A stretch of 64,000 bases of DNA from Verrucomicrobiota bacterium (GTDB taxonomy: Bacteria > Verrucomicrobiota > Verrucomicrobiia > Limisphaerales > CANJXF01). Shown here one piece after another: positions 28,479 through 63,872 of this stretch. The position numbers and the translations under genes were made by a program. A model generated the notes under the pieces. That model was not told the DNA's origin and searched no databases. It saw only the letters and a program-made list of their open reading frames with translations. The DNA is taken from positions 32,001-96,000 of the forward strand of contig JBBQRQ010000002.1 in assembly GCA_038214755.1 (NCBI GenBank), read 5' to 3'. Each line of letters starts with the position of its first letter. The stretch's first letter is position 1.

Positions 28479-28615
28479 CGGGTAGCATCTGCCTCCGGCG
28501 GGTGCGAGGCATCTTCACTTCATCCGCCATGCATCCAAACTATCCACCAATCCAATCATCCAACCATTCAATCTCGGATTGTGAACTCGCACCCGCCGGA
28601 GGCAGATGCTACCCG
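28479..28615. repeat. GTAG-type REP doublet enclosing short (atcca) repeats
   Basis: cgggtagcatctgcctccggcgggtgcgag ... ctcgcacccgccggaggcagatgctacccg, perfect 30-bp arms. Confidence 0.85.
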
Positions 28616-30117
28616 ACCGCCAGCACGCGCAAATCTTCCGGCGTTTGAGCGCGGTCGATGATCTGCGCGTAATGTGAAATTTGCATGGGAGAAAATAAAT
28701 CCAGCAGAGAAATTTTTATCGGCCCCAACTCTCCCGTGAGCGTCACGTGATCCCATTGCGCGGAAATAATCGCATCGCAAAATTTTTGCACGCACTTGCC
28801 GCGAATCAACGCGCGCGTGGTCAAGGGCGGACCGCAAATCGCCGCGCGCACCGCTCCCTCGGCCGGCACATTTTCAAAAGCGCCGGATTGTTCCAAGCCG
28901 AAATAGAGTCCTTCGTTTCGGTCGAGCCGGTGATATTCCAAGTCGAGACTTTGCAGCCACGGATCGTCGTCCCCTACATTTTGCGCGGCTTGAAATTCAC
29001 GGATGAGCGCAAGTTTCGCCACCCAGTCGAGCCGGTTTCGACAGCGGAGATAATCCGTTTCCAAATCGTCGAGCACCGTTTCCCAATGGGCGACCACTTG
29101 CGCTTTGGACGAATCGGACAAATCGCAAACTTCCCGGACCGCTTGCAAATATTTTCGCTGAACTTCGACGGCGGTGGACCTTTGCGAATTTTGCAAAATC
29201 AGTTCCCAACGACATTTCGGGTCGCGCGAAATGGCCGGCAGCGCGCCGAGCGGGTCGCTCAAAATTGGATAAACTCGCTGCGGAAATCGCGTCAACGCCT
29301 CCAGCACGAGCGCCGTGGTGCCGACTTTCAACCGCGTGGCAAAGGGCGACATGTTCGCGTCGCCGATGATGACGTGAAACCGCCGATACAAATTAGGATT
29401 GGCGTGCGGTTCGTCTCGAGTGTTGACGAGCGGACGCCGCTGCATCGTGTCCACACTTTGCAGTTCGCTGAAAAAATCGCTGCGTTGAGCAATCTGAAAT
29501 CCGGGCGAAACAAATTTGTCCTCGGCCTCGATGGCAAATTTCCCCGCGCCCGCGAAAATTTGCCGCGTGACCAAAAAAGCCTGGATGCTTTGCGCGAGTT
29601 TTTCCCAGGGCAAGGAGCGCGGCAGTAAATAATTTTCATGGCAACCGTAACTGTGTCCGCGAAAGTCGGTGTTGTTTTTGTAGAGGCGGACCGTCTCGCC
29701 GCGTTGCTCAGAAAGCTTGCGCGCGCAGCGCATCAAAATTCTTTCGCCGGCCCGATCTTGCGCGACGAGTTCATCGAGCGTGCTGCATTCCGGCGTGCAA
29801 TATTCGGGATGAGCGTGGTCATTGTAAAAGCGCGCGCCGTTGCCGAGGATGAGGTCGCTTTTTATTTCGACGAAAGTCAATTCGCGTTGCGCGTCCTGGG
29901 CAAAATAATTTGCTTCATCCGTATCCTGCCGAAGTTCCTCGACGTGAAAACCGCGCATGTCGGCATGTGGATCTTCGCTTTCATAATCCCAGCGCATCCA
30001 GACGCCGGGTTCCGTCGCGCTGCGCACCAGCGCGATGGATTCGGCGACGACGTCGAGTTGCTCCACGTTGTCTCGCGCGATGCCGAATTCTGTTTCGATG
30101 CCGAATTGGATGTTCAT
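28609..30117 (-). CDS. dop: Pup deamidase/depupylase (Dop, PafA2 family)
   Basis: 'GIETEFG', Dop-loop-like 'WDYESEDPHADMRG', 'NGARFYNDHAHPEY', 'YKNNTD..GHSYGCHENY', 'NTRDEPHA', 'RRFHVIIGDAN'. Confidence 0.88.
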   Translation of the reverse strand: MNIQFGIETEFGIARDNVEQLDVVAESIALVRSATEPGVWMRWDYESEDPHADMRGFHVEELRQDTDEANYFAQDAQRELTFVEIKSDLILGNGARFYNDHAHPEYCTPECSTLDELVAQDRAGERILMRCARKLSEQRGETVRLYKNNTDFRGHSYGCHENYLLPRSLPWEKLAQSIQAFLVTRQIFAGAGKFAIEAEDKFVSPGFQIAQRSDFFSELQSVDTMQRRPLVNTRDEPHANPNLYRRFHVIIGDANMSPFATRLKVGTTALVLEALTRFPQRVYPILSDPLGALPAISRDPKCRWELILQNSQRSTAVEVQRKYLQAVREVCDLSDSSKAQVVAHWETVLDDLETDYLRCRNRLDWVAKLALIREFQAAQNVGDDDPWLQSLDLEYHRLDRNEGLYFGLEQSGAFENVPAEGAVRAAICGPPLTTRALIRGKCVQKFCDAIISAQWDHVTLTGELGPIKISLLDLFSPMQISHYAQIIDRAQTPEDLRVLAVG

Positions 30118-30128
30118 TTCAGATTTGA

Positions 30129-30286
30129 AGGGTAGCACAGGCCACTGGCCTGTTCCGTCCGGCGACCCAACGGACGGAATGGTGAGAATGTCACACTGTC
30201 TAAAAAGATTTTTTTGTTCCGCGACGCCCTTCCCATTCCGCTCGGCGGGGTCGCCGAGCGGGACGGGCGAGTCGCCCGTGCTACCC
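30129..30286. repeat. GTAG-type REP doublet between arc and dop
   Basis: gggtagcacaggccactggcctgttcc ... gggacgggcgagtcgcccgtgctaccc. Confidence 0.75.
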
Positions 30287-30301
30287 GTTAATTCGGCGAC
30301 G

Positions 30302-32008
30302 TCAAACAATTCCTTTGCCGAACGAATCGTCTTTTCTGGGGCGAATCGGGCCGAGCTTGATCACATTCTCTGGATCGAAGTCCGTCAGCTTGAGCCAATC
30401 TTCCGTGATGTCGGTTGGCGGAAACAGGTCGTTTTCTTCGTACTCCTTTTTCAAGCCGTTCAATAAATCTTCACGCGTCAGTTGCGTTTCCTGGTTCGTT
30501 TCAATGGTGCGTTTGATGGCAAGGCTTTTCGCCCGCTCGACCACCGCCGCGATGATGGCGCCGCTGGCCAGATCGCCTCGATGCAGAAAATCTTTTTTCC
30601 CGCTGCGATAGACAATTTCCAAAAATTGATTTTCCGGCGTGCGCGCAAAATGCGCTTCGGTGATGGCTTGCGCCAAATCTTTTTTCGGTTCGGCCAGTGG
30701 CAACGAGTCGCGCAAATAAATTTCGTAAATATTTTGCGCGCCAGTTTTGTCCGGGCGATTGACTTTTATTTTTCGATCAATGCGGCCGGGACGCAAAATC
30801 GCCGGGTCAATCAAGTCCGCGCGGTTCGAGGCGAGAATTACGACGACGTTGTGCAGCGGCTCCAATCCGTCCATCTCGGTGCAAAACATCGGGACGAGCG
30901 TGCTCAAAATGCTGGAGTAACGCCCCGCGCGCCGCGTGCCGAGAATGGATTCCGCCTCGTCGATGAAGAGAAATGCGAGAGCGCCGTCGCTGGCCCGTTC
31001 GCGGCATTGGGAAAAAAGATCGCGCACCTGCCGTTCGGATTCGCCGACCCACATGTTCAAAATTTCCGGGCCTTTGACGTGCAGAAAAAATTCGGGGTGA
31101 TCGACACCGGTTTGATTTTTAATTTGTTGACGCAGGTTGAACGCGGTCGCTTTGCCCAAAAGAGTTTTTCCGCAGCCGGGCGGGCCATGCAAAAGAAAAC
31201 CTTTCGGGACGGTGTGCTGAAAACGTTTGAACAAATCACGGTGCAAGAAAGGAAGTTCGATGGTGTCGCGAATCGCTTGCACCGCTTCTTCCTGACCGCC
31301 GACGGCAGCCCAGGGAAGTTCATCCACTTTTTCCAGCGAGCGTTCGATGCGTTTGCCGACGCCGATGACTTCGAGAGCGACACGCTGATTGGCGTCGAGG
31401 CGAATATCCATTCCCGGCTTCAACTTTTCTTTGGCGAGCAAGGAGGAACGAAGAAGGACGAGCGGCGAAAAGCCGGATTCCTGCCCGATGCGCAGACGTC
31501 CGTCGGAAAGCAATTCGTCGATGCGAACAATCGGGCCGTTGCGATCAAAGCCAAGTCCCTGCACGACGGCGAAAGCTTCGTTGCACAAAACGCGCTGGCC
31601 GATTTGCAAACTGGCCAGCGGGATTTGCGGGTCGAGCCGGCAAACGTAATCTGAGCCACCGACGCACACGTGCGCTTTGTCCGGATCAATCGGCATGAGA
31701 AAAGTGCCCACGCGAAAGGCGGGCGAGCGGAGTTTTTCGACAATCGCGTCGAGCTTTTCAATGGCTTGACGCGCTTGCTCATTGATTTCTTCCATCTCAG
31801 AAATGCGGTCGCGCAAATAAATCAAATCGAGGATGGAGGTGTGGCGTGGAGGAAGTTTTTGGGCGATGAGATCGACGAGTTGCAGCGTGGAAAGGGAATC
31901 CAATTGCTCGCGGGAAAGGAAATCTCCGAGCGGCGCAACCGGCTCGGGTTTTTCGCGCGGTGTTTCCGTTGGAGGTCGGGGCGCGGGCTTTTTTTTCGGT
32001 TCCGGCAT
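30302..32008 (-). CDS. arc: proteasome-associated AAA ATPase (ARC/Mpa family)
   Basis: N-terminal coiled coil plus OB domains, 'GPPGCGKT', 'KGPEILNMWVGESER', 'ASNRADLIDPAILRPGRID'; directly upstream of dop. Confidence 0.9.
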   Translation of the reverse strand: MPEPKKKPAPRPPTETPREKPEPVAPLGDFLSREQLDSLSTLQLVDLIAQKLPPRHTSILDLIYLRDRISEMEEINEQARQAIEKLDAIVEKLRSPAFRVGTFLMPIDPDKAHVCVGGSDYVCRLDPQIPLASLQIGQRVLCNEAFAVVQGLGFDRNGPIVRIDELLSDGRLRIGQESGFSPLVLLRSSLLAKEKLKPGMDIRLDANQRVALEVIGVGKRIERSLEKVDELPWAAVGGQEEAVQAIRDTIELPFLHRDLFKRFQHTVPKGFLLHGPPGCGKTLLGKATAFNLRQQIKNQTGVDHPEFFLHVKGPEILNMWVGESERQVRDLFSQCRERASDGALAFLFIDEAESILGTRRAGRYSSILSTLVPMFCTEMDGLEPLHNVVVILASNRADLIDPAILRPGRIDRKIKVNRPDKTGAQNIYEIYLRDSLPLAEPKKDLAQAITEAHFARTPENQFLEIVYRSGKKDFLHRGDLASGAIIAAVVERAKSLAIKRTIETNQETQLTREDLLNGLKKEYEENDLFPPTDITEDWLKLTDFDPENVIKLGPIRPRKDDSFGKGIV

Positions 32009-37973: not shown

Positions 37974-38297
37974 ATGAAGCCTTTTGACCTTTTAAAATTT
38001 CGAGAGTTCGTTACGGCGGAAAAAATCGAATGGCGGAAGCACGTTCTGCAAAAGCTGGCCGAACGCGCTATCCCCCAGCAATTCGTTCGCGATGTATTGC
38101 TGGCCGGCGAACGAATTCGGGACTACGCGGATGACAAACCTTTTCCGAGCGCGCTTTTTCTAGGGTATGTTTCCGGCAAGCCGCTTCATGTGGTGGCAGC
38201 TTGTGATGAAACGCAAGGACAGGTGTTCATCATTACGGCTTACGAACCGTCGCTCGAAATTTTTGAACCGGATTATAAAACAAAACGAAAATTATGA
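37974..38297 (+). CDS. DUF4258 family putative toxin
   Basis: 'HVLQKLAERAI', 'DY.DDKPFPSAL', 'PLHVV', 'IITAYEP'. Confidence 0.85.
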   Translation: MKPFDLLKFREFVTAEKIEWRKHVLQKLAERAIPQQFVRDVLLAGERIRDYADDKPFPSALFLGYVSGKPLHVVAACDETQGQVFIITAYEPSLEIFEPDYKTKRKL

Positions 38298-38527
38298 ACG
38301 CGAAAGACAATCAATGCCCGCTGTGCGGCGGTAGGAAAACAAACGGCGAAACCACTTTCACGGCGGATTTAGGAAGCGGCGTGGTCGTCGTGCGGCGCGT
38401 CCGCGCCACGGTTTGCGCGCAATGCGGCGAAGAATGGATTGATGATGCGACCGCCCGCCGCCTGGAGCAGGTCGTCAACGAAGCGCGGTTAAAACACAGT
38501 GAAGTGGAAGTGACGGCCTTTGCATGA
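38294..38527 (+). CDS. YgiT-type zinc finger (MqsA-like) antitoxin
   Basis: CPLCG...CAQCGE; ATGA overlap with the DUF4258 gene. Confidence 0.85.
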   Translation: MNAKDNQCPLCGGRKTNGETTFTADLGSGVVVVRRVRATVCAQCGEEWIDDATARRLEQVVNEARLKHSEVEVTAFA

Positions 38528-47146: not shown

Positions 47147-48541
47147 TCAGTCTTCAGCGCGCTCGCCATGCGGCGCCATCTTCACGAGCTTCGGATCGAA
47201 TTGGCCGATCGTTTCCACCAAGTCGGATTGCGCAGCCATGACCGTATGAATGTCTTTGTAAACCATCGGCGCTTCGTCAAGGCCAGCGGAAATGAGCGTC
47301 ACTCCGCGTTCGCGCAGAAATTGATTCACTGCTTTCCAATTGAAAGTTTGCGACGCGCGAGTGCGGCTCATGACACGTCCCGCTCCATGCGAAGCAGAAT
47401 GCAAAGATTCAGCATTCCCTTTTCCACGAACAACAAATCCGGGGGTCGCCATTGAGCCAGGGATTATTCCCAACACACCCGTGCCCGCTGGCGTGGCACC
47501 TTTGCGATGCACCACGACCTCACGCTCTACGCCCTCGATAACGTGCTTTTCTTTCCAGGCAAAGTTGTGGTGGTTTTCCAGATCGAGCAAGACCTGCGCG
47601 CCGAGATTTTCCGCGATGTGTTTATGAATGCAGGCGTGATTCGCGGCGGCGTATTGTCCCATCAATTCCATCGCGTTCCAATACTCCTGCCCTTCCTGCG
47701 AATCGAGCGACAACCACGCGAGCCGCTTCAATTCGCTCGGCAAATCGGGAAACTGGCTGAACGCGATCTTGCTGTAGTAATCGCAGACCGACGCGCCTGT
47801 GCCGCGACTCCCGCTGTGTGACAGCAACGCCACATAAGTGCCCGGTTCCAATTCGTTGATTTTCGAGTGCGCCGTGAATAGACCAAACTCGACAAAATGA
47901 TTGCCGCTGCCGCTCGTGCCGAGTTGCGACCACGCGCGGTCTTTGTTTTGTTTCGTAATTGGACTGACCGACCAGTCCGCGTCGAGCACGCCGTGGTGGC
48001 GACGCTCCTTGAAATTCGCGCCGATGCCGAAGCGCGTCTCCGCTTCGATGGCGCGCGTGAGCCGGTCCTGCTTGCGTTCCAGATCGCGCAACGGCAGATC
48101 GAGCACCGTCATCTTCATGCGGCACGCGATGTCCACACCAACGGCGTAAGGAATCACCGCGTTCTCGGTGGCCAGCACGCCGCCGATGGGCAGGCCGTAG
48201 CCCACATGCGCGTCCGGCATGAGCGCGCCCGCCACCGAGATCGGCAACAGACACGCCTTTTCCATCTGCATCACCGCCTCATGTTCCAAACCTTCGCCCC
48301 ATTGCCGATACTTCACCGGCTCGGCGCGCGGCGGCGGTGGCGCATGGAGCAACGCCTTCGCAAGCTCGCCGCGCAATGCGTCATCCACGAACGCCGCCGG
48401 ATTGGCGACAATGGCCGCGACATCTTCGTGCAACCGCGACTTGTCGCCGCCGCCGAGGATAAACTTGCAAACAAAATCCGTCGCGCGCCGGGTGGCCTCG
48501 CCGAGCGGAACTCCCGTTCGTAAAAAATCTTTCGCATTCAT
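47147..48541 (-). CDS. rtcB: RtcB family RNA ligase
   Basis: 'MPDAHVGYGLPIGG', 'VGVDIAC', 'GTSGSGNHFVE', 'HSGSRG', 'HHN', 'HRKGAT', 'PGSM', 'HGAGR', 'DEAP..YK'. Confidence 0.96.
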   Translation of the reverse strand: MNAKDFLRTGVPLGEATRRATDFVCKFILGGGDKSRLHEDVAAIVANPAAFVDDALRGELAKALLHAPPPPRAEPVKYRQWGEGLEHEAVMQMEKACLLPISVAGALMPDAHVGYGLPIGGVLATENAVIPYAVGVDIACRMKMTVLDLPLRDLERKQDRLTRAIEAETRFGIGANFKERRHHGVLDADWSVSPITKQNKDRAWSQLGTSGSGNHFVEFGLFTAHSKINELEPGTYVALLSHSGSRGTGASVCDYYSKIAFSQFPDLPSELKRLAWLSLDSQEGQEYWNAMELMGQYAAANHACIHKHIAENLGAQVLLDLENHHNFAWKEKHVIEGVEREVVVHRKGATPAGTGVLGIIPGSMATPGFVVRGKGNAESLHSASHGAGRVMSRTRASQTFNWKAVNQFLRERGVTLISAGLDEAPMVYKDIHTVMAAQSDLVETIGQFDPKLVKMAPHGERAED

Positions 48542-48575
48542 AACAAAATTGCTTCTCCCGGTTTGAGGCGGAAAC

Positions 48576-49868
48576 TCACTTTTGCGCCTTGCTCAACTCC
48601 GATTCGATCTCCTCGACCGTCGGCAGGCTGCCCTTCAGATTCTTCGGCAGGGATTCGACGAGCTTGGTCTGCCATTGCGCGACGCCGATGGGCTTCTTCA
48701 AATCGCGCAACGCATATTCCACCGTCAAGTTGTCGCGCTCCTTGCACAGCAACAGTCCGATAGACGGCTTGTCATCTGCGTGACGCAACTGATCGTCCAC
48801 GGCGGAGAGATAGAAATTCATTTTACCGGCGAACTCCGGCTCAAAGGCTTTCATCTTCAAATCGATCACCACGTAGCTGCGCAACCGCAGATGATAGAAC
48901 AACAGGTCGAGATAATAATCCTGCCCGCCAATTTCCAGGTGAAACTGCCGTCCCACGAACGCAAACCCGACGCCGAGCTGAAGCAGGAACTTCTGGATGT
49001 GATCCAGCAAACCCAATTCAAGGTCGCGCTCATGCGCGTCGGCGCGGAGCGTGAGGAAATCGAAGGTGTAAGGGTCTTTGAGCGTCTGCTCGGCCAGATC
49101 GGATTGCACCGGCGGCAACGTGCGCTGGAAGTTCGTAACCGCCTTGCCTTCGCGTTTGTGCAATTGCGCTTCGATGTGGTGCGTCAGCACCGCGCGTGAC
49201 CAGCCATGCTCGACGGCTTTGCGCGCATACCAAAGGCGGTCAGCGGCGGATTCGAGTTTTTGCAGCAACACAATGTTGTGACCCCACGGCAGCGAAGCCA
49301 TTGGTTCGGGCGGAGCGGCAAATTCTGTTGCAGGCTGTGACAGTTTTTGCGCCGGGAATTCTCTTACAGCTTGTGAGAGAATCTGCGGTTCGGATTCTCC
49401 AAGTCGCTGAGGAAGAATCGCCTCCTCCGGCAATTGTCGCACAAGCTGTGCGACAATTGCCGAACCCGACTGAGCAGCCGCCTTTTTCCCGCCGCCCGGT
49501 AATTGTCGCACAGGTTGTGCGACAATTGCGTTCGCCGGTGCATAACCCAGGAAGAACGCCCTCATGCGATAAAGATTCTTGCGAGAAAATCCTGCCATCT
49601 CGGGGAACTCCTCGGTCAAGTCATGCGAGAGGCGATCAAGCACGCGGTCGCCCCATTTGTGCGTTTTCTGTTGTTCAACGATGGCTCTGCCAATGTCCCA
49701 ATACAACGCGATCAGCTCGCGATTGACGGAAACCGCCGCGCGAAGTTGCGACGCGCGGACGCGCATCTTGAGGTCGGCGAGAATGGTGGCGTAATCGGCA
49801 GGCAATGCGCTGGACGCTTTGCCGCCGATGGCTTTTGCCAAGCTGATGGTTGATTTCTTTTTCGCCAT
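48576..49868 (-). CDS. DUF1016/YhcG PD-(D/E)XK nuclease family protein with repeat-expanded linker
   Basis: 'VNRELIALYWDIG', 'GFSRKNLYRMRAF', 'LPWGHN', 'KDPYTFDFL', 'DLLFYH..LR..VVIDLK', 'GKMNFY'. Confidence 0.93.
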   Translation of the reverse strand: MAKKKSTISLAKAIGGKASSALPADYATILADLKMRVRASQLRAAVSVNRELIALYWDIGRAIVEQQKTHKWGDRVLDRLSHDLTEEFPEMAGFSRKNLYRMRAFFLGYAPANAIVAQPVRQLPGGGKKAAAQSGSAIVAQLVRQLPEEAILPQRLGESEPQILSQAVREFPAQKLSQPATEFAAPPEPMASLPWGHNIVLLQKLESAADRLWYARKAVEHGWSRAVLTHHIEAQLHKREGKAVTNFQRTLPPVQSDLAEQTLKDPYTFDFLTLRADAHERDLELGLLDHIQKFLLQLGVGFAFVGRQFHLEIGGQDYYLDLLFYHLRLRSYVVIDLKMKAFEPEFAGKMNFYLSAVDDQLRHADDKPSIGLLLCKERDNLTVEYALRDLKKPIGVAQWQTKLVESLPKNLKGSLPTVEEIESELSKAQK

Positions 49869-49937
49869 ACCCAGAGTTAGCCGGTGATTCCTGGTTGATG
49901 ATGTTAAAGGTGGATTGGGTTGAAAAGCCTTTCCAAA

Positions 49938-49990
49938 CGGGCAGCTTCACCCAGCGGCACACCGAGAGGAATAAAATCTTTAGTGTTCAT
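49938..49990 (-). pseudogene. orphan duplicate of the rtcB 5' end
   Basis: ATGAACACTAAAGATTTTATC-CTCGGTGTGCCGCTGGGTGAAGC = MNTKDFI/LGVPLGEA versus rtcB MNAKDFLRTGVPLGEA. Confidence 0.85.
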
Positions 49991-50032
49991 GAAAAATGCG
50001 TTTCAACAGGAACAGTGCCACCACCACCAAGC

Positions 50033-51166
50033 TCACGCTATCGCTTGGCGCAATTCGCCCGGCGAAACAATTGAAAGTTTCAGCCTATCCTGAACCCGCT
50101 CATACGCCGGGCCGTTCAATGGGCTGACCACATAGTTTTTCCCTTTTGGATACTGTTCGCGAAACGCCGCCAGCCCGCGCGTTTCAAACGCATCCGCTTT
50201 CCATTTGCATTCGATGGCGTCAACGGCATCGCGGCCGCGCGGCACGACGAAGTCCACTTCGCGCTGCTGTTTGTCGCGCCAGAAATGAATCTTCGGCAGA
50301 TTGGCGGCGATAAGGGTGTCCAGCACGAGATGCTCCCACAACACGCCGCAATCCTCCGTTCGCAAATGATCCCAGCCGCGCGCGTGGCAGACCAACCCCG
50401 TGTCAAAACCGAACACCTTCGGCTGCGCCACGATCTCCCGCCGCCCGCCTGCTGAAAACGGACGCACCAAATGCGCCACATGCGTGATCTGATAAACCTC
50501 CAGCCAGTTCGTGACGGCAGGCCGGCTGATCTGGCTTTCGGCGGCCAGCTTCGTCACGTCCAGCATCCCGCCGCTTTGGCGCATCAACAATTCCAGCACG
50601 CGCAGAAAACCGGCGCGTTTCTCCAGCCGGAAAAGCTCCTGGACGTCGCGCGCGAAATAGGAATCCTGCCACTCGGCGTAGAATTCTGGATTGTGTTTCT
50701 CCGCGAGCAGCGCGGGCGGCAATCCCCCGCGCAACAAACGTTCCCGCAAATCCGTCACGCCGAACGCCGCCAATTCCTCGTGCAACACCGGCACCAGCTG
50801 CACCACCCGCTTGCGCCCCGTCAGGCTGTCGCGGAACTTTTGCGTGGCCGCGAGCGTGGACGAACCCGTCGCCAGGATTTTCAATTTGGGAAAATCATCC
50901 GCGCCAATCTTCAACAGCCGGCTTGGATCGGGAAGCTGATGCACCTCGTCGAACACCACCAGCCGCTTTTTCACGGAACGGAAAAAACTCTCCGGATCGC
51001 GCAGCCGTTCCGCCACGCTGGGCAGGTCGCAGTTGAGAAACTCCGCGTCGGGAAAGCTCTGCGCCAGCACCGTCTTGCCCGCGCGCCGCGGCCCGCTCAG
51101 CCAGACAATGGACGCCTGTTTCCACGCGGCGACGAGCCGTTCAGTCCAAAAAGGTCGGTCAATCAT
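50033..51166 (-). CDS. AAA_14 ATPase with DUF4143 domain
   Basis: 'GPRRAGKT', 'FDEVH', 'TGSS', 'SLTGR', 'GGLP', 'PKVFGFDTG', 'REVDF', 'IECK'. Confidence 0.9.
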   Translation of the reverse strand: MIDRPFWTERLVAAWKQASIVWLSGPRRAGKTVLAQSFPDAEFLNCDLPSVAERLRDPESFFRSVKKRLVVFDEVHQLPDPSRLLKIGADDFPKLKILATGSSTLAATQKFRDSLTGRKRVVQLVPVLHEELAAFGVTDLRERLLRGGLPPALLAEKHNPEFYAEWQDSYFARDVQELFRLEKRAGFLRVLELLMRQSGGMLDVTKLAAESQISRPAVTNWLEVYQITHVAHLVRPFSAGGRREIVAQPKVFGFDTGLVCHARGWDHLRTEDCGVLWEHLVLDTLIAANLPKIHFWRDKQQREVDFVVPRGRDAVDAIECKWKADAFETRGLAAFREQYPKGKNYVVSPLNGPAYERVQDRLKLSIVSPGELRQAIA

Positions 51167-51172
51167 GGCAGG

Positions 51173-51208
51173 CAGACTTTACGTTTAGACGGCTAAAAGT
51201 AAAGTCTG
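51173..51208. promoter_or_regulatory. inverted repeat directly upstream of the DUF4143 ATPase (putative operator)
   Basis: cagactttacgtttag-acgg-ctaaaagtaaagtctg. Confidence 0.5.
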
Positions 51209-51300
51209 GATTCGGCGCGCGGCGTTTACGCCGCTTCAACTCCCGGCTGTTGAGCGCCGCAGAGATGCCTCACGATGTCGTGCGGTGAAGCGGACTGAAC

Positions 51301-51540
51301 TTTGAATCCCAACGGGATTCCAGCGTTCAGCCAAAGGTTGCGACGAAGGAGCTATCTTGGGTTCGCATCCCAAAATATCCACAACCCCAACGCGGGTTGC
51401 ATCGTTTTCATTTATCCGTTTCTGATTCACGGGCGGACGCAACTCCTTCAGAGTTGAAATTCTTTTTTCACGTTTTCCCAGGGTAGCTCGTTCCTCGCAA
51501 CCTTGGGCTGACTGACGAAATCCCGTTGGGATTTTCAAAA
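51301..51540. repeat. composite palindromic repeat (aatcccaacgggatt family)
   Basis: aatcccaacgggatt / caaccccaacgcgggttg / caactccttcagagttg / aatcccgttgggatt, nested inverted arms; same family at 60325-60597. Confidence 0.8.
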
Positions 51541-51615
51541 GCATGAGCCGTCGCGCGCCGCGTGGCTTCACCCGGCGGCACGTCTTGGCGCGCCGAAGTT
51601 GGACGCAAGGGGGGA

Positions 51616-51643
51616 CGAGACGGAGAAAATCTTTGGCGTTCAT
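51616..51643 (-). pseudogene. second orphan duplicate of the rtcB 5' end
   Basis: ATGAACGCCAAAGATTTTCTCCGTCTCG = MNAKDFLRL. Confidence 0.75.
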
Positions 51644-51713
51644 GTCAAACAAGGGTCGTCCTCCCATTCGAGAACTTGCGCGTTCGTCGCCCCCGTCATG
51701 TCAGCCCACGTTT

Positions 51714-52454
51714 TCACAACCAAATGTCCGTTCCTGCGGCGAGCCAGTTCGGAACCATCTTCTGATGCTGCCAGTGTTCGCTTTGCTGCACCTTCTCCAC
51801 AAACTCCGGACGGACCAGTTTGGCGCGGCCTGTCACATAGCCGTCGGCCTCACTGCGAACGTAAAGTCCTTCCATCAAATTGTCGGTCTTGCCCGTGATT
51901 GGATTTTCAAAAGCGCTGTCAAACGCCGATGGCACGATGAGCGATTCCAGTTCGTCTGCCTTGGCGCGACCGCGATGAACGATAGGCACAGTATGAAGGC
52001 CGGTTCCGTCCAACATTCGCTGACGAGCGGCGAGGTCGAGAAACTGCCCGGCGTCCTTGTCGTAAATGTCGAACTCGAAAAAGTAATGCGGTAGCTTGCA
52101 ATAGTGGACGGAGTGCTTCGCGTAGAGCCATTCGCCGTAGAGGATAAACTGATTACCGAGCATTCCTTCGAGGACTGGGCGCTTCACCGAAGTCCACTGC
52201 TTGAAGAGATCATATTGCGGATGCATGCCCTCGGTAATTTCGTGACCACGGCATTGCAGCACCATGCGTCCACGGGACGTGAAATGAATTCCAACGTTCG
52301 TGCCATCAATCTTCTCCGCCACAATCAACGAAGGGTCCGCGATCAACCTCTCAGATTCTTTTTGGCCAAGATGTTTGTCGCCAGCAGTTCCCTTCGACCC
52401 GAACAGATGCGGTGTGCGTGGGTATTTGATAAAATCATCGCGGGTCGCTCCCAT
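51714..52454 (-). CDS. ATP-dependent RNA ligase family protein
   Basis: 'KYPRTPHL', motif I 'EKIDGTN', 'LYGEW', 'FDIYD', 'EGLY', 'RAKLVRPEF'. Confidence 0.88.
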
Positions 52455-52520
52455 AGCAGTAATCGAGTTTGGTTGAATTAAGTTGGGAGAGCGAGCTTTG
52501 ACGCCCGCTCTCCCGTTGTT

Positions 52521-52591
52521 TCATTCGTTCAAGAACAGTTTCCACTCCGTGATGCCGTGGGCGTTGCGGAGGAGCGCCGTGACCGGCAGTT
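52521..52591 (-). pseudogene. orphan duplicate of the HNH gene 3' end
   Basis: encodes LPVTALLRNAHGITEWKLFLNE* versus LPVTALIRNAHGIAEWKLFLNA* at 53946-54016. Confidence 0.9.
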
Positions 52592-52619: not shown

Positions 52620-53867
52620 TCACAGACAAGACCACGGGAGCGCCGTCACCTTGTCGTGTATTTGCAGCGGCTGACGGCAGCGGCAAATGATGTAGGCGTG
52701 CTTCGCGTGTTTCGGATGTTCACCCAAGAACGTCAGGAGATGACGCGCGTCGGAGAGCGTCGGGTTCTCCGTCCATTTCACTTCAATCGGCGTCAGGCCG
52801 CCTTCGCGCTGGATGATGAAGTCCACTTCCGCGCCGTCATGGGTGCGGAGGTAATGCAACGTGCCCGTGCCAAGGTATTGCAGGCGTTTCCAAAGTTCGA
52901 CTCCCACCCATTGCTCGAAGAGCGGGCCGGGATTCGCCAGCACCACATCGGTGTTGGGCCGCAACCCGGCGGCGGCGTGGCGGATGCCGAGGTCGAAGAA
53001 CAGGAAGCGGTCGGTGGAGAGCAGATTTTTTCGCGGGCTGCCGGAATATGCTGGCAGACGGAAGCCGAGAAACATGTCTTCCAAAAGCTGGTAGTGGCTC
53101 TTGATGGTCGGCACGGACAGGCCTACGTCCTTGGAAATTTTGTGGTAGTTCACCATCTGCCCGGACTCGACGGCGGCGAAGCGCAGGAAGCGCACGAACG
53201 CGGGCCAGTCCTTCACCATCGCTTCGCGCCGCATTTCCTCCTCCAGATGAAGTTGCGTGTAGGCGTGCAACATCTCGGCGCGATGCGCTTCGTCAGCGGT
53301 GACGACGCCCGGGAGTTCGCCGAAGGCGAGTCGTGTGAGCAGGTCGGCGCGCGGAAATGGTTTCGTCGGGCGCTTCCCGTCCGGCCAGTCGAGCGGCAAC
53401 GGCGGCGGGGCGTCAAACTCAGCGGGCGATTCGGCAGGCGGGCGTTCAGTCAGCGTGAGCGGAAAAAGGCGGTGCAAAAAGCTGCGGCCCGGCAGAAGGT
53501 TCGCGCCGGTCTGCCGCAACTTGCGCGCGGAACTGCCGCAGAGGATGAACCGCCAGCGTTTCTTGTCTCCGTCGTAAAGATGCTGCACGGCGTCGAACAG
53601 CGCGGGCACGTTTTGCGCCTCGTCCACGAACACCCACGCGCCGCCTTCGCGCTGTCGCAGGCCACGGCAAAGTGCGATGAGGTCGTCCGGGTGGTTGAGA
53701 TATTGCGCCCGCACCTTCGGAATGGAGAGGTCAATGCGCGCGGCGTGCGGCGGCAGGAGATTCTGAATGAGGGTGGATTTGCCCGTCTGCCGCGCGCCGA
53801 ACACGATATGCACATACGGGGCGGCGAACTTCTTTCGCCAAAGGGATTCGGGCCAGCGGGTGAACAC
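52620..53867 (-). CDS. AAA_14 ATPase with DUF4143 domain
   Basis: 'GARQTGKST', 'VDEAQ', 'CGSSARKL', 'LLPGR', 'FFDLG', 'AEVDF', 'IEVK'. Confidence 0.9.
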   Translation of the reverse strand: MFTRWPESLWRKKFAAPYVHIVFGARQTGKSTLIQNLLPPHAARIDLSIPKVRAQYLNHPDDLIALCRGLRQREGGAWVFVDEAQNVPALFDAVQHLYDGDKKRWRFILCGSSARKLRQTGANLLPGRSFLHRLFPLTLTERPPAESPAEFDAPPPLPLDWPDGKRPTKPFPRADLLTRLAFGELPGVVTADEAHRAEMLHAYTQLHLEEEMRREAMVKDWPAFVRFLRFAAVESGQMVNYHKISKDVGLSVPTIKSHYQLLEDMFLGFRLPAYSGSPRKNLLSTDRFLFFDLGIRHAAAGLRPNTDVVLANPGPLFEQWVGVELWKRLQYLGTGTLHYLRTHDGAEVDFIIQREGGLTPIEVKWTENPTLSDARHLLTFLGEHPKHAKHAYIICRCRQPLQIHDKVTALPWSCL

Positions 53868-53881
53868 GGCTTGGTTTTAAT

Positions 53882-53917
53882 CGCCTGTTATTGAAAGTCA
53901 ACTTTCAATAACAGGCG
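53882..53917. promoter_or_regulatory. perfect 16-bp inverted repeat upstream of the second DUF4143 ATPase
   Basis: cgcctgttattgaaag-tcaa-ctttcaataacaggcg. Confidence 0.55.
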
Positions 53918-53945
53918 TTTAATGAAAACGCGATTCGCGCGCACC

Positions 53946-54203
53946 TCAGGCATTGAGGAACAGTTTCCACTCCGCGATGCCGTGCGCGTTTCGGATGAGC
54001 GCCGTCACCGGCAGTTCCTTCGGCGCGCGCGGAACGTTGAGCAATTTCAATACGGCTTCGTGCGGCAGGCGGTTGCCCTTTTTCGAGTTCACCGCTTTGT
54101 TCGCCCAGACGCAATTCTCCCACGCATCTTTTCCGCCGCGCGAACGTGGCAGGATATGATCGATACTGCCTTCCTCCGGCTTCAGAATTTTGCCGGTGTA
54201 TTG
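53946..54203 (-). pseudogene. HNH endonuclease, 5'-truncated
   Basis: 'QYTG.......SIDHILPRSRGGKDAWENCV......NSKKGNRLP'; upstream sequence is tRNA-like rather than coding. Confidence 0.85.
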
Positions 54204-54224
54204 GACCAGCCTCCCGGAATTGAA

Positions 54225-54302
54225 TGGTGCGGCAACCGGGAGTTGCACCCGGACGAACGGAAGACTTGCAGGTCGCCGCCTGGGCTACTCGGCTAATAGG
54301 AC
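54225..54302 (-). tRNA. chimeric/degenerate tRNA-like gene (Cys-GCA-like 5' half fused to a different 3' half)
   Basis: GTCCTATTAGCCGAGTAGCCCAGGCGGCGACCTGCAA|GTCTT...CCGGG-TGCAACT-CCCGG-TTGCCGCACCA; acceptor strands do not pair. Confidence 0.55.
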
Positions 54303-54310
54303 ATCAATCG

Positions 54311-54560
54311 TTACTCTCGGAAGTAATGATCGCGCCGACTTCCGTCATAGCAGCCAGACTGCAATCAACAATTTTTGAAAGCTGCGTCCTGAGCCGCACG
54401 AACAAAGATCGTTGCGTCCGAGCTTTTCATGAAGCTCCTTAGTTCCATAAACGATGCGGGAACCTTTTTTCAAGCGAGTTTCCGATGGATACCCTTTGCG
54501 ACGTTTGCTGGTGATCTCGAAAAAACGGGCTGTCTTGATGAACCGATTGATTTCCCTTAC
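54311..54560 (-). CDS. small SEC-C motif protein (recoded or pseudogene; absent from the ORF track)
   Basis: '[49 protein letters not shown]', then +1 frame '[20 protein letters not shown]'; 5' boundary uncertain. Confidence 0.7.
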
Positions 54561-54771: not shown

Positions 54772-54848
54772 TGGTCAGGAAGCCGGCATTTGCACGCGGA
54801 CCGTCTCCTTCACAGGGAGAGATGCTGCTAATTACACCACGATCCTGA
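54772..54848 (-). tRNA. non-canonical tRNA-His(GTG)-like gene
   Basis: TCAGGATCGTGGTGTAATTAGCAGCATC-TCTCC-CTGTGAA-GGAGA-CGGTCCGCG-TGCAAAT-GCCGGCTTCCTGACCA; imperfect T and acceptor stems. Confidence 0.7.
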
Positions 54849-54945: not shown

Positions 54946-55019
54946 TGCTCCCACGTGGACTTGCACCACGAACCTTCTCCTTCGCAGGGAGACATGCAGT
55001 TCTATTACACCTTGAGAGC
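54946..55019 (-). tRNA. non-canonical tRNA-Arg(GCG)-like gene
   Basis: acceptor GCTCTCA/TGGGAGC, anticodon arm TCTCC-CTGCGAA-GGAGA, T arm CGTGG-TGCAAGT-CCACG; A at position 8; no encoded CCA. Confidence 0.8.
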
Positions 55020-55115
55020 GGAAAGAAATTTACGATTTACGAATGACGATTTACGCGGGCAAATCCAAATCGTCAGCCGACTCGTAAATCGTAAATCCAA
55101 AATCGTAAATCGAAA

Positions 55116-62975: not shown

Positions 62976-63350
62976 ATGTCAGAAAAAAACAAAAAACGGT
63001 TCGGAGTTTGGATGGATACGCACCACGCGACCATCGTAGGCTGCAACCCCACCGCCACTGAGTTCAACGTCCTCGGTCATGCCAAGAATCCAGGTGCCGG
63101 AGCCAATTCGAACGAGAATGCCTCGAACAATCTCGAAATAACTTTGGTTCGAAAGTATTTCAAAGAGATCGGCCGCCATCTGGTGAACGCGGAGGAGGTT
63201 CACCTCACCGGCACTGGCACAATCCAAGAGCAATTCAAGCACTACCTTGCGGAAACCCCCCAGTTCAAAAGGACGGTCGTTTCCGAAAGCACCTCCAACC
63301 AAATGAGCGATGAAAAGCTGGTTGAGTTCGTAAATAGCCATTTCAACTAG
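62976..63350 (+). CDS. eRF1-domain-2 / host-attachment-like small protein
   Basis: 'GVWMDTHHATIV', 'YFKEI...L.NAEEVHLTGTGTIQEQFKHYL'. Confidence 0.55.
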   Translation: MSEKNKKRFGVWMDTHHATIVGCNPTATEFNVLGHAKNPGAGANSNENASNNLEITLVRKYFKEIGRHLVNAEEVHLTGTGTIQEQFKHYLAETPQFKRTVVSESTSNQMSDEKLVEFVNSHFN

Positions 63351-63649
63351 GAAGACGTCATCCAGTTTATGGCCTCAAAACACACCGCGCGACTCGCGTC
63401 ATCGCGGTAAAATACGAGGCAGTTGCGAAATCCGTTCACGGGCAACATTCTCAGCTTTGGCAATGCCGAGTTGCGCGTGCGAAAAATCATTCCGCATTCG
63501 GGATACCGGGAAATCTGGTGAAAGGTTTCATCAATTGCGCCAAGAACCTGTTCGGCAGCGGCGGGATCATCTTTTGCAATAAAAACGTAAATTTCCGGAA
63601 GATCATCCTCGATGACGGAGGCATGCCGTTCGATTCGTTTGTCAGCCAC
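63347..63649 (-). CDS. ParE/RelE family toxin, C-terminus possibly truncated
   Basis: GTG at 63649; 'DDLPEIYVFIAKDDPAAAEQVL..I.......P..G', 'LRMLPVNGFRNCLVFYR'; lacks the usual 'V.HGAR' end. Confidence 0.7.
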   Translation of the reverse strand: MADKRIERHASVIEDDLPEIYVFIAKDDPAAAEQVLGAIDETFHQISRYPECGMIFRTRNSALPKLRMLPVNGFRNCLVFYRDDASRAVCFEAINWMTSS

Positions 63650-63872
63650 GTTCTTGAGAGGCCTTCCGGACGCGCTCTTTCCAATCGGGCTCGAGCGGGG
63701 AAAAGGGGCCTTTGCAACGTTCTTCCAAAACCATTTCGAGTTCGGTTTGTTCGCAATCCGCGCGCGCCAACGCGAGCAAGTATTCTTCTTTCGAGCGAAA
63801 ACCGCCCGCTTTGAAGCGGTTCTCGATTTGCGCATCCAGAGTGTCTGGCAATGAAACGGTGACGTTGCTCAT
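63642..63872 (-). CDS. ParD-like ribbon-helix-helix antitoxin
   Basis: 'VTVSLPDTLDAQIE....AGGFRSKEEYL..L.R'; overlaps the toxin start. Confidence 0.8.
   Translation of the reverse strand: MSNVTVSLPDTLDAQIENRFKAGGFRSKEEYLLALARADCEQTELEMVLEERCKGPFSPLEPDWKERVRKASQERG

Follow-up and report, generated by a model that had tools for sequence, protein, structure and literature searches.

We examined a stretch of 64,000 nucleotides (the window) from the genome of a Verrucomicrobiota bacterium, here called G000 (assembly GCA_038214755.1, contig JBBQRQ010000002.1, positions 32,001 to 96,000), in which the start of the RNA-repair gene rtcB is present three times on the minus strand, at 51643 (copy 1), 49990 (copy 2) and 48541 (copy 3). 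Copy 3 begins the intact gene (47147-48541, 464 aa, PF01139), the sole rtcB found in the genome by tblastn, and copies 1 and 2 are orphans; a DUF4143 ATPase gene (51166-50033) and a YhcG/DUF1016 gene (yhcG, 49868-48576) separate the three starts. We suggest that the orphans are probably scars of gene gain that proceeds through one-sided homology and needs no integrase. The extra genes at rtcB appear to have been added one after another, at least one of them with a replacement start from another bacterium, and our comparisons point to the rtcB junction as one case of a genome-wide way of gaining genes without an integrase. A first-pass annotation, made from the sequence of the window alone, had described the junction as a repeat-use hotspot at which each cargo brought its own replacement rtcB start; this reading was largely right for the newest cargo and too narrow overall.

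When a profile of the first 150 nt of rtcB genes of the clade was searched, both orphans matched (E 6e-11 and 8e-11), and eight control windows of rtcB gave zero upstream or downstream matches at E<=0.01, so the threefold start reported by the first-pass annotation was confirmed. Copy 1 (51548-51643) was correctly called an orphan and corresponds to rtcB nt 1-64, a longer extent than had been noted; its reading frame is broken by a 32-nt insertion at 51615-51584. Copy 2 (49944-49990), which had been described as frameshifted, corresponds to nt 1-47 and opens an in-frame open reading frame (ORF) of 28 codons that runs to 49904 (MNTKDFIPLGVPLGEAARLERLFNPIHL, then stop); copy 1 is the frameshifted one. 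As had been stated, no integrase is in view: neither an integrase nor a transposase was found among the window proteins scanned (9 in one scan and 46 in another).

The working start is of a foreign allele type. Over nt 1-48 (48494-48541), copy 3 differed at 13-14 positions from the rtcB genes of four genomes of the same genus (G002, G003, G006 and G007), which differed among themselves at 0-2 positions. Over nt 49-345, the window gene differed from the same-genus genes at 26-39 of 297 positions, the genus's own spread being 23-51, and the excess divergence of nt 1-48 gave Fisher p values of 0.0003-0.017 against nt 49-345. The starts nearest to copy 3 among 110 belong to other lineages, with 7-8/48 differences. 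Copy 1 differed from the genus starts at 3-6/64 positions and copy 2, also of genus type, at 6-8/48. The differences between the copies are mostly synonymous, as the annotation had noted, with non-synonymous changes as well: eight synonymous and three non-synonymous codons between copies 1 and 3, and seven and four, respectively, between copies 2 and 3. Measured against G007, the synonymous and non-synonymous codon changes were 8/2 for copy 3, 1/3 for copy 1 and 3/2 for copy 2. Based on these allele distances and codon counts, both orphans are best read as decaying resident-type starts, and the working start as a diverged functional allele, a graft.

At the same site in G007, the region of the second ATPase (window 51217-49944 against locus L031, 89.7%) leads directly into the working rtcB start and yhcG is missing, so that the counterpart of copy 2 serves G007 as its working start, as expected if old starts become orphaned in the way the annotation had proposed. 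YhcG/DUF1016 would then be the newest cargo at rtcB, G007 being without it at the same site. A foreign start stands beside YhcG, but the claim that each cargo brought one was not supported, because the working start that follows the ATPase in G007 has the same allele type as its stub; local mosaicism is also evident in rtcB.

We then compared loci around rtcB from GTDB genomes and metagenomes, of which 111 were kept at >=76% identity and 108 had at least 100 nt upstream; these 108 include a few duplicates or near-duplicates, and kin are not independent. The 5' profile found 12 rtcB stubs in 11 of the 108 loci at E<=0.01, all upstream and on the sense strand and none downstream, and the position at which a stub ends ranges from about 40 to 118 nt. 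G007 has three rtcB starts too, its cargo being different (one unknown gene, Fic in inverted orientation and ATPase 2), and G003 has two. In L050 (2388, minus strand), L227 (7149, plus strand) and L244 (6748-8052, plus strand), the rtcB stub runs in frame into a cargo or neighbouring gene, whose start codon it provides. An HNH gene lies upstream of rtcB in 44 loci, and the slot between the two is usually bounded by the rtcB start codon and by a hairpin that follows the HNH stop. This slot is empty (<200 nt) in 9 loci, with G011 and G028 as examples, and filled in 35, with gaps up to 4242 nt. By our own count, the cargo comprises about 30 ORF families, including Fic, PIN pairs, SLFN_AlbA_2, DUF4238, HEAT-repeat, ligase-HD and many unknowns. 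Cargo turnover between these conserved flanks is thus high, and short HNH 3' remnants were also seen in L216, L243, L165, L224 and L140. The empty and alternative-cargo alleles for which the annotation had advised looking both exist, and the fixed fragments with invariant cargo that would have spoken against its reading were not seen. The variable slot of its hotspot therefore holds, while the restriction to rtcB does not.

The wider pattern emerged from a self-comparison of G000 for low-copy direct repeat pairs within 8 kb. Among 273 pairs, 43 were gene 3' ends repeated downstream and 20 were gene starts repeated upstream, against 3 and 2 in the opposite geometries; 24 were internal to a gene and 181 fell in other classes. 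Gene-restoring geometry thus outnumbers its opposite by 63 to 5. The figure of 63 is a lower bound, as the filter misses the rtcB and HNH stubs themselves, and it may include a few paralogue remnants or errors of our home-made gene caller. These pairs lie at 57 host genes, with repeats of 35-539 nt, a median identity of 86-88% and a median gap of 0.75-1.06 kb; five of them reach >=95% identity. Host genes assigned by Pfam include serS, ilvD, nadA, lipA, a phosphoribosyltransferase gene, an M3 peptidase gene and a deoC-like aldolase gene, and from their sequences we take further ones to be thrS, pheT, mutS, purB, gatA and accC. The cargo of 20 other regions consists mostly of small toxin-antitoxin-like pairs (ParE, PIN, DUF433/DUF5615, DUF4258, TumE) or unknowns, and no integrase was found among the 80 of its 126 called genes that were scanned.

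The composition of these repeats fits that of coding alleles. Mismatches between stub and working copy fell on codon positions 1/2/3 in the numbers 272/189/724 (1185 in total), a third-position share of 61% compared with about 46% expected from decay of one copy under a rough model. Among the 3' repeats, 29 of 43 end within 4 nt of the stop codon and 2 extend further, and the 25 nt beyond them match at background level (median 7/25). Terminal inverted repeats are absent from 61 inserts (mean score 10.9 against a null of 10.8, with 5 above the null 95th percentile), and the junctions of the G000 inserts share no att motif and have at most weak similarity. At the deoC-like site, stubs occur in G000, G005, G006 and G007, the site is empty in G003 and G004, and it is filled without a stub in G001; at pheT, stubs occur in G000, G005, G006 and G007, and the cassette order of G000 differs from that of G007. 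By a rough measure, the stub load was 10 in G000 (1.2 Mb sampled), 0 in G001 of the same genus (0.4 Mb) and 1 in three other families (0.4 Mb), and on these small samples it seems to depend on lineage; 3' stubs numbered 9 in 1.33 Mb against 3 in 2.07 Mb of rtcB-flanking loci.

Some further observations were made on the stubs and their surroundings. In L050 (1427-1519), L264 (4043-4141) and L263 (8056-8328), an rtcB start is not followed by an intact rtcB within the stretch covered; these were excluded from the 108-locus count, and a weak match in L251 (E 0.27), inside another ORF, was not counted. In L031 (5267-6760), L045 (9671-11167) and L046 (9564-11099), rtcB is longer through in-frame insertions (498-512 alignment positions against 464 aa). 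YhcG homologues also lie between direct repeats in L293 (G143, contig C407; 241 nt at 79%) and L289 (G052, contig C13; about 88 nt), the repeat in L293 being the start of what we presume to be a type I restriction subunit gene. In G000 itself, L309 (contig C42, 18001-29500) has a threonyl-tRNA synthetase-like gene followed by five of its own remnants among toxin-antitoxin pairs and a CAP12/Pycsar TIR gene, and L302 (contig C1, 128669-131001) has an insert between gene-junction repeats made of an aldo-keto reductase 3' end and a glutamine synthetase-like start. The slot hairpin was rejected as an attC-like site, since it is single-copy in the genome at <=4 substitutions. A role of HNH as a homing or targeting nuclease seems unlikely, since it is truncated here and most stub sites of the genome have no HNH called beside them.

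We propose that the donor DNA would come from a relative in which the same core gene has a cargo gene next to one of its ends. Through host recombination the shared gene end would pair with the chromosome, and the other end of the fragment would be joined without homology. The working gene would thereby be completed with the donor's end, and the resident one would stay as a stub beyond the cargo. The gene would remain intact only where an event includes its start or stop, and such events would hence be the ones to survive. Repeated at rtcB, such events would stack cargo with the newest nearest the gene, the order being a ligase-HD module, ATPase 2 and then YhcG, and a mirror event at the HNH 3' end would have brought another ATPase (ATPase 1). 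Stub-flanked cassettes may later have spread by ordinary homologous recombination. Donor-arm integration is favoured because the third-position bias and the repeats ending at the stop fit two coding alleles and not a copied target, which would be expected to continue beyond the stop and to decay more uniformly. The data show the anatomy of the locus, the variation in its alleles, the graft at copy 3, the genome-wide polarity and the lack of a common junction motif; the arrival order, the enzymology, DNA uptake as the route and the later spread of cassettes are what we infer.

As for the route, a fragment that was trimmed, circularised and integrated by a single crossover is a tentative proposal of ours, and homology-facilitated illegitimate recombination (HFIR) is a rather doubtful one. 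The circle is slightly favoured because, in the available text on one-arm integration in E. coli (PMC3240628), trimmed and circularised DNA gave variable partial gene duplications in 56/60 clones (14 were sequenced, with lengths of 109-950 bp), whereas with HFIR target DNA was lost, usually about 1 kb of it, and because the copy 2 stub ends about where the copy 3 graft ends, as a short circular arm would leave it. Those events are likewise integrase-free, with variable-length partial gene duplication after a single crossover, and copy 3 shows the one donor-derived repeat copy that such integration predicts, with the codon-position pattern in support; they concern laboratory plasmids in E. coli, however, and we found no demonstration in Verrucomicrobiota in the literature consulted on this process. 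More than one integration route may operate.

Several findings weigh against this account. An rtcB stub was detected in just 5 of the 35 filled HNH-rtcB loci and in none of the other 30, which also gives no support to a foreign start for every cargo; either most exchange leaves no scar or scars decay. The annotation had suggested looking for the donor of each start; the nearest relatives of copy 3 lie in other lineages as given above, and a donor with yhcG beside rtcB was found in 0 of 29 homologous non-self loci (1.5-kb flanks; YhcG matched at E<=1e-100 in 32/401 genomes). Polarisation of sites against genus orthologues, made without a same-species strain, gave no clear single crossover point, and later homologous replacement of the working copy could likewise enrich synonymous differences. 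The genes comEC and dprA are present in the genome, but they also match in 10/14 control genomes and are no proof of competence. One-arm integration in E. coli is very rare, about 1e-9 to 4e-9 according to the text available (PMC3240628). Finally, some repeats look like copies of the resident gene. Over 167 nt that include the promoter, the outer serS stub and its working copy are 99% identical, and the stub has G000-specific alleles. G000-specific bases are likewise common to the two copies of pheT, the rtcB stub and working copy of L215 hardly differ over nt 40-118, and 11/20 of the 5' repeats reach >10 nt upstream of the start (own count).

This last group of observations is what would be expected of a true long target duplication, in which 35-500 bp at the end of the resident gene are copied to both sides through break repair or a nuclease-driven insertion and the copies then diverge; the serS and L215 cases fit either a true resident copy or a very close donor. 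We nevertheless consider this explanation unlikely for the pattern as a whole. Copy 3 is foreign to the genus, the 3' repeats stop at the stop codon, the third-position share exceeds that of one-copy decay, working copies were derived about as often as stubs (42 against 45 sites, with one stub counted for the M3 gene), and few pairs approach identity. The structural resemblance is close. In the accessible text on insertion with long target duplication (PMC2853133, Furuta, Abe & Kobayashi 2010), cargo likewise lies between variable direct repeats of >30 bp with mobility genes missing, the repeats often lie over a start or stop with the gene left intact, and relatives have empty alleles. Here, repeats of 47 and 64 nt at rtcB and of 35-539 nt genome-wide surround inserts of <20 kb, a single-copy empty allele exists in G011 and G028 and, for the deoC-like site, in G003 and G004, and the inserts lack a mobility gene within the protein scans given above. 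The same text, which deals mostly with naturally competent species, describes restriction-modification genes (9 cases in 760 locus pairs) between near-identical repeats (43/46 to 47/47 in rows of its Table 2). In contrast, a single genome here holds at least 63 pairs, and cargo is serially stacked and includes toxin-antitoxin and candidate defence genes; YhcG, DUF4143 ATPases, RNA ligase, Fic, PIN/ParE pairs and unknowns were seen. The repeats here resemble a pair of alleles that reach as far as the stop codon, and a copy of the recipient target is seen in the outer serS stub but not in copy 3 nor in the bulk of the 63. The pattern thus has the structure of an insertion with long target duplication and departs from it in that the cargo is not restriction-modification and the repeats are often no copies of recipient DNA.

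Loss instead of gain, in which deletions eroded a larger ancestral operon, or a tandem duplication, and left gene ends behind, is improbable in our view. Deletions are evident here (the 5' half of HNH and most of an HD/AAA gene), and G007 could have dropped yhcG by recombination between copies 2 and 3, but one slot is filled by about 30 unrelated cargo families, the pheT cassette order differs between G000 and G007, and simple decay explains neither the foreign working start nor the 63:5 polarity.

Even less credit can be given to a site-specific recombinase or transposase that acts in trans on non-autonomous cassettes carrying a replacement gene end. The outcome would be alike, since dusA islands and SXT at prfC also provide a new 5' end and restore the target gene, as stated in the accessible text of PMC8409611; the genome has five tyrosine-recombinase (PF00589) matches, and two genomes can retain one and the same junction for a given cargo (Fic in G003 and G007; pheT). 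Those islands, however, encode an integrase and have a fixed att core according to that text, whereas here this contig carries none of the five matches, a single gene shows varying breakpoints, 57 unrelated target genes are involved, neither terminal inverted repeats nor a shared core was found, and the slot hairpin is single-copy.

An assembly chimera of related strains, for which the apparently metagenome-assembled genome of 175 contigs and the presence of the stretch in a sediment metagenome could speak, and for which the annotation had proposed a check, can practically be dismissed: in a separate unitig assembly of the probable source run (the same sample and not an independent isolate), one piece covers copy 2, yhcG and copy 3 and a second covers the ATPase, copy 1, the ligase and the HNH stub, both at an even depth of 22-27, no cargo-skipping joint occurs in it, and G003, G007 and other families show the same architecture.

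Variable slots between conserved genes with recombination in the flanks are also a feature of the minimal mobile elements of Neisseria. Integrase-free hotspots of horizontal gene transfer have the same features in the available text of Oliveira et al. 2017 (PMC5635113), and they fit the 30 stub-less filled alleles, but a double homologous crossover leaves no gene-end stubs and does not explain the stacking; most cargo exchange is probably a clean double crossover of this kind. The orphan arrays of T6SS, Rhs and CDI loci (Kirchberger et al. 2017, PMC5361080) likewise arise without an integrase by serial insertions anchored on one side that displace old parts outward. According to the text accessible, exchange there is mostly clean replacement, and the parts displaced belong to a conflict locus, being its toxin tips and immunity genes, whereas here they are ordinary core-gene ends across the genome. 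A translational-stress regulon linking a tRNA array, HNH and rtcB (PMC8421152) resembles the host operon, but the HNH gene is broken here, and neither cargo nor duplicated gene ends are mentioned in the part of that paper available to us. No description of this slot or of such stub density was found in the literature searched, which lay outside subscription papers and supplements.

How genes enter hotspots that have no integrase is an open question, and insertions with long target duplication have no established mechanism. This genome offers about 60 scars and relatives with empty and reordered alleles, and the foreign working start and the repeats ending at the stop are a direct sign that the 'duplication' is often a donor allele, so that the mechanism could be tested by comparing strains and in a simple transformation assay. 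The slots gather unannotated genes beside toxin-antitoxin and candidate defence genes, and stubs could therefore serve to find new ones. Core genes here can carry foreign ends, which matters for phylogenies and annotation. We also considered, as a speculative and on balance doubtful idea, that in some Verrucomicrobiota small cassettes of toxin-antitoxin or defence cargo with 35-500 bp of a core-gene end form a mobile class of their own that is excised as a circle and re-enters through host recombination. Any gene matching their arm would be a target and would be restored, and the arrays that the cassettes build could be re-ordered; this would amount to an integron-like system without an integrase in which dozens of housekeeping gene ends serve as docking sites.

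On the minus strand, the locus comprises a tRNA cluster, an HNH 3' half, ATPase 1, a second HNH 3' end, the hairpin, the RNA ligase gene, an HD/AAA remnant, copy 1, a REP/MITE-like repeat, ATPase 2, copy 2, yhcG and the intact rtcB. All features named in this paragraph are on this strand except the REP/MITE-like one. The tRNA cluster includes a tRNA-like gene (54946-55019, RF00005, 48.4 bits) and tRNA-His (54772-54847, ARAGORN), and the Rfam scan gave, beyond the tRNA, chance hairpin matches only. A deletion of about 1.27 kb relative to G007 at 54204-54258 fuses tRNA-like sequence to the middle of the HNH gene, of which the 3' half is left (53946-54204, Pfam). ATPase 1 (52620-53867; DUF4143 by Pfam, also called by PADLOC) lies between the two HNH 3' ends. 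The second of these (52521-52591) is a mirror-image stub, a direct repeat at 86% (nhmmer E 8e-19, profile match to about 95 nt); an internal deletion as its origin was set aside, because the profile aligns it as the last ~95 nt of the gene. The conserved hairpin (52485-52514) forms the left border of the slot. The RNA ligase module (51714-52454, PF09414) also occupies the slot of L158, L214 and L220, where a full HD/AAA_33 gene (Pfam on the full gene) stands after the ligase; here its first 20 codons remain (51658-51717; 12/20 identical, E 7e-8, DNA match to 51659). The REP/MITE-like inverted repeat element (51305-51533), with many genome copies by blastn, appears to be a later insertion. ATPase 2 has 94% aa identity to the ATPase at the same site in G007 and is called PDC-S01 by PADLOC, and YhcG (PF06250 and PF17761) is called PDC-S02; no published validation of either system was found in the literature available.

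Palindromes lie immediately upstream of both DUF4143 ATPase genes (53877-53922 and about 51172-51200), and by eye a sequence like that of the second stands alone before rtcB in L215 and L004, as if the ATPase had been deleted. The linker of YhcG contains three 34-nt palindromic repeats in frame (49352-49529). Region 54310-54440 on the minus strand matches L055 at 78% and by eye has a SEC-C-like reading that seems to need a frameshift, with a TGA after a Cys codon, which may reflect a pseudogene or recoding. Short heptamer-like tandem repeats in inverted arrangement lie beside a tRNA fragment at 55028-55115. Elsewhere in the window, a gene of the Pup-ligase family adjoins a proteasomal-type ATPase gene (28612-32008, minus strand), and small toxin-antitoxin-like pairs (DUF4258, DUF433/DUF5615, ParE) lie in or between ordinary operons at 37974-38524, 1010-1605 and 63350-63872.

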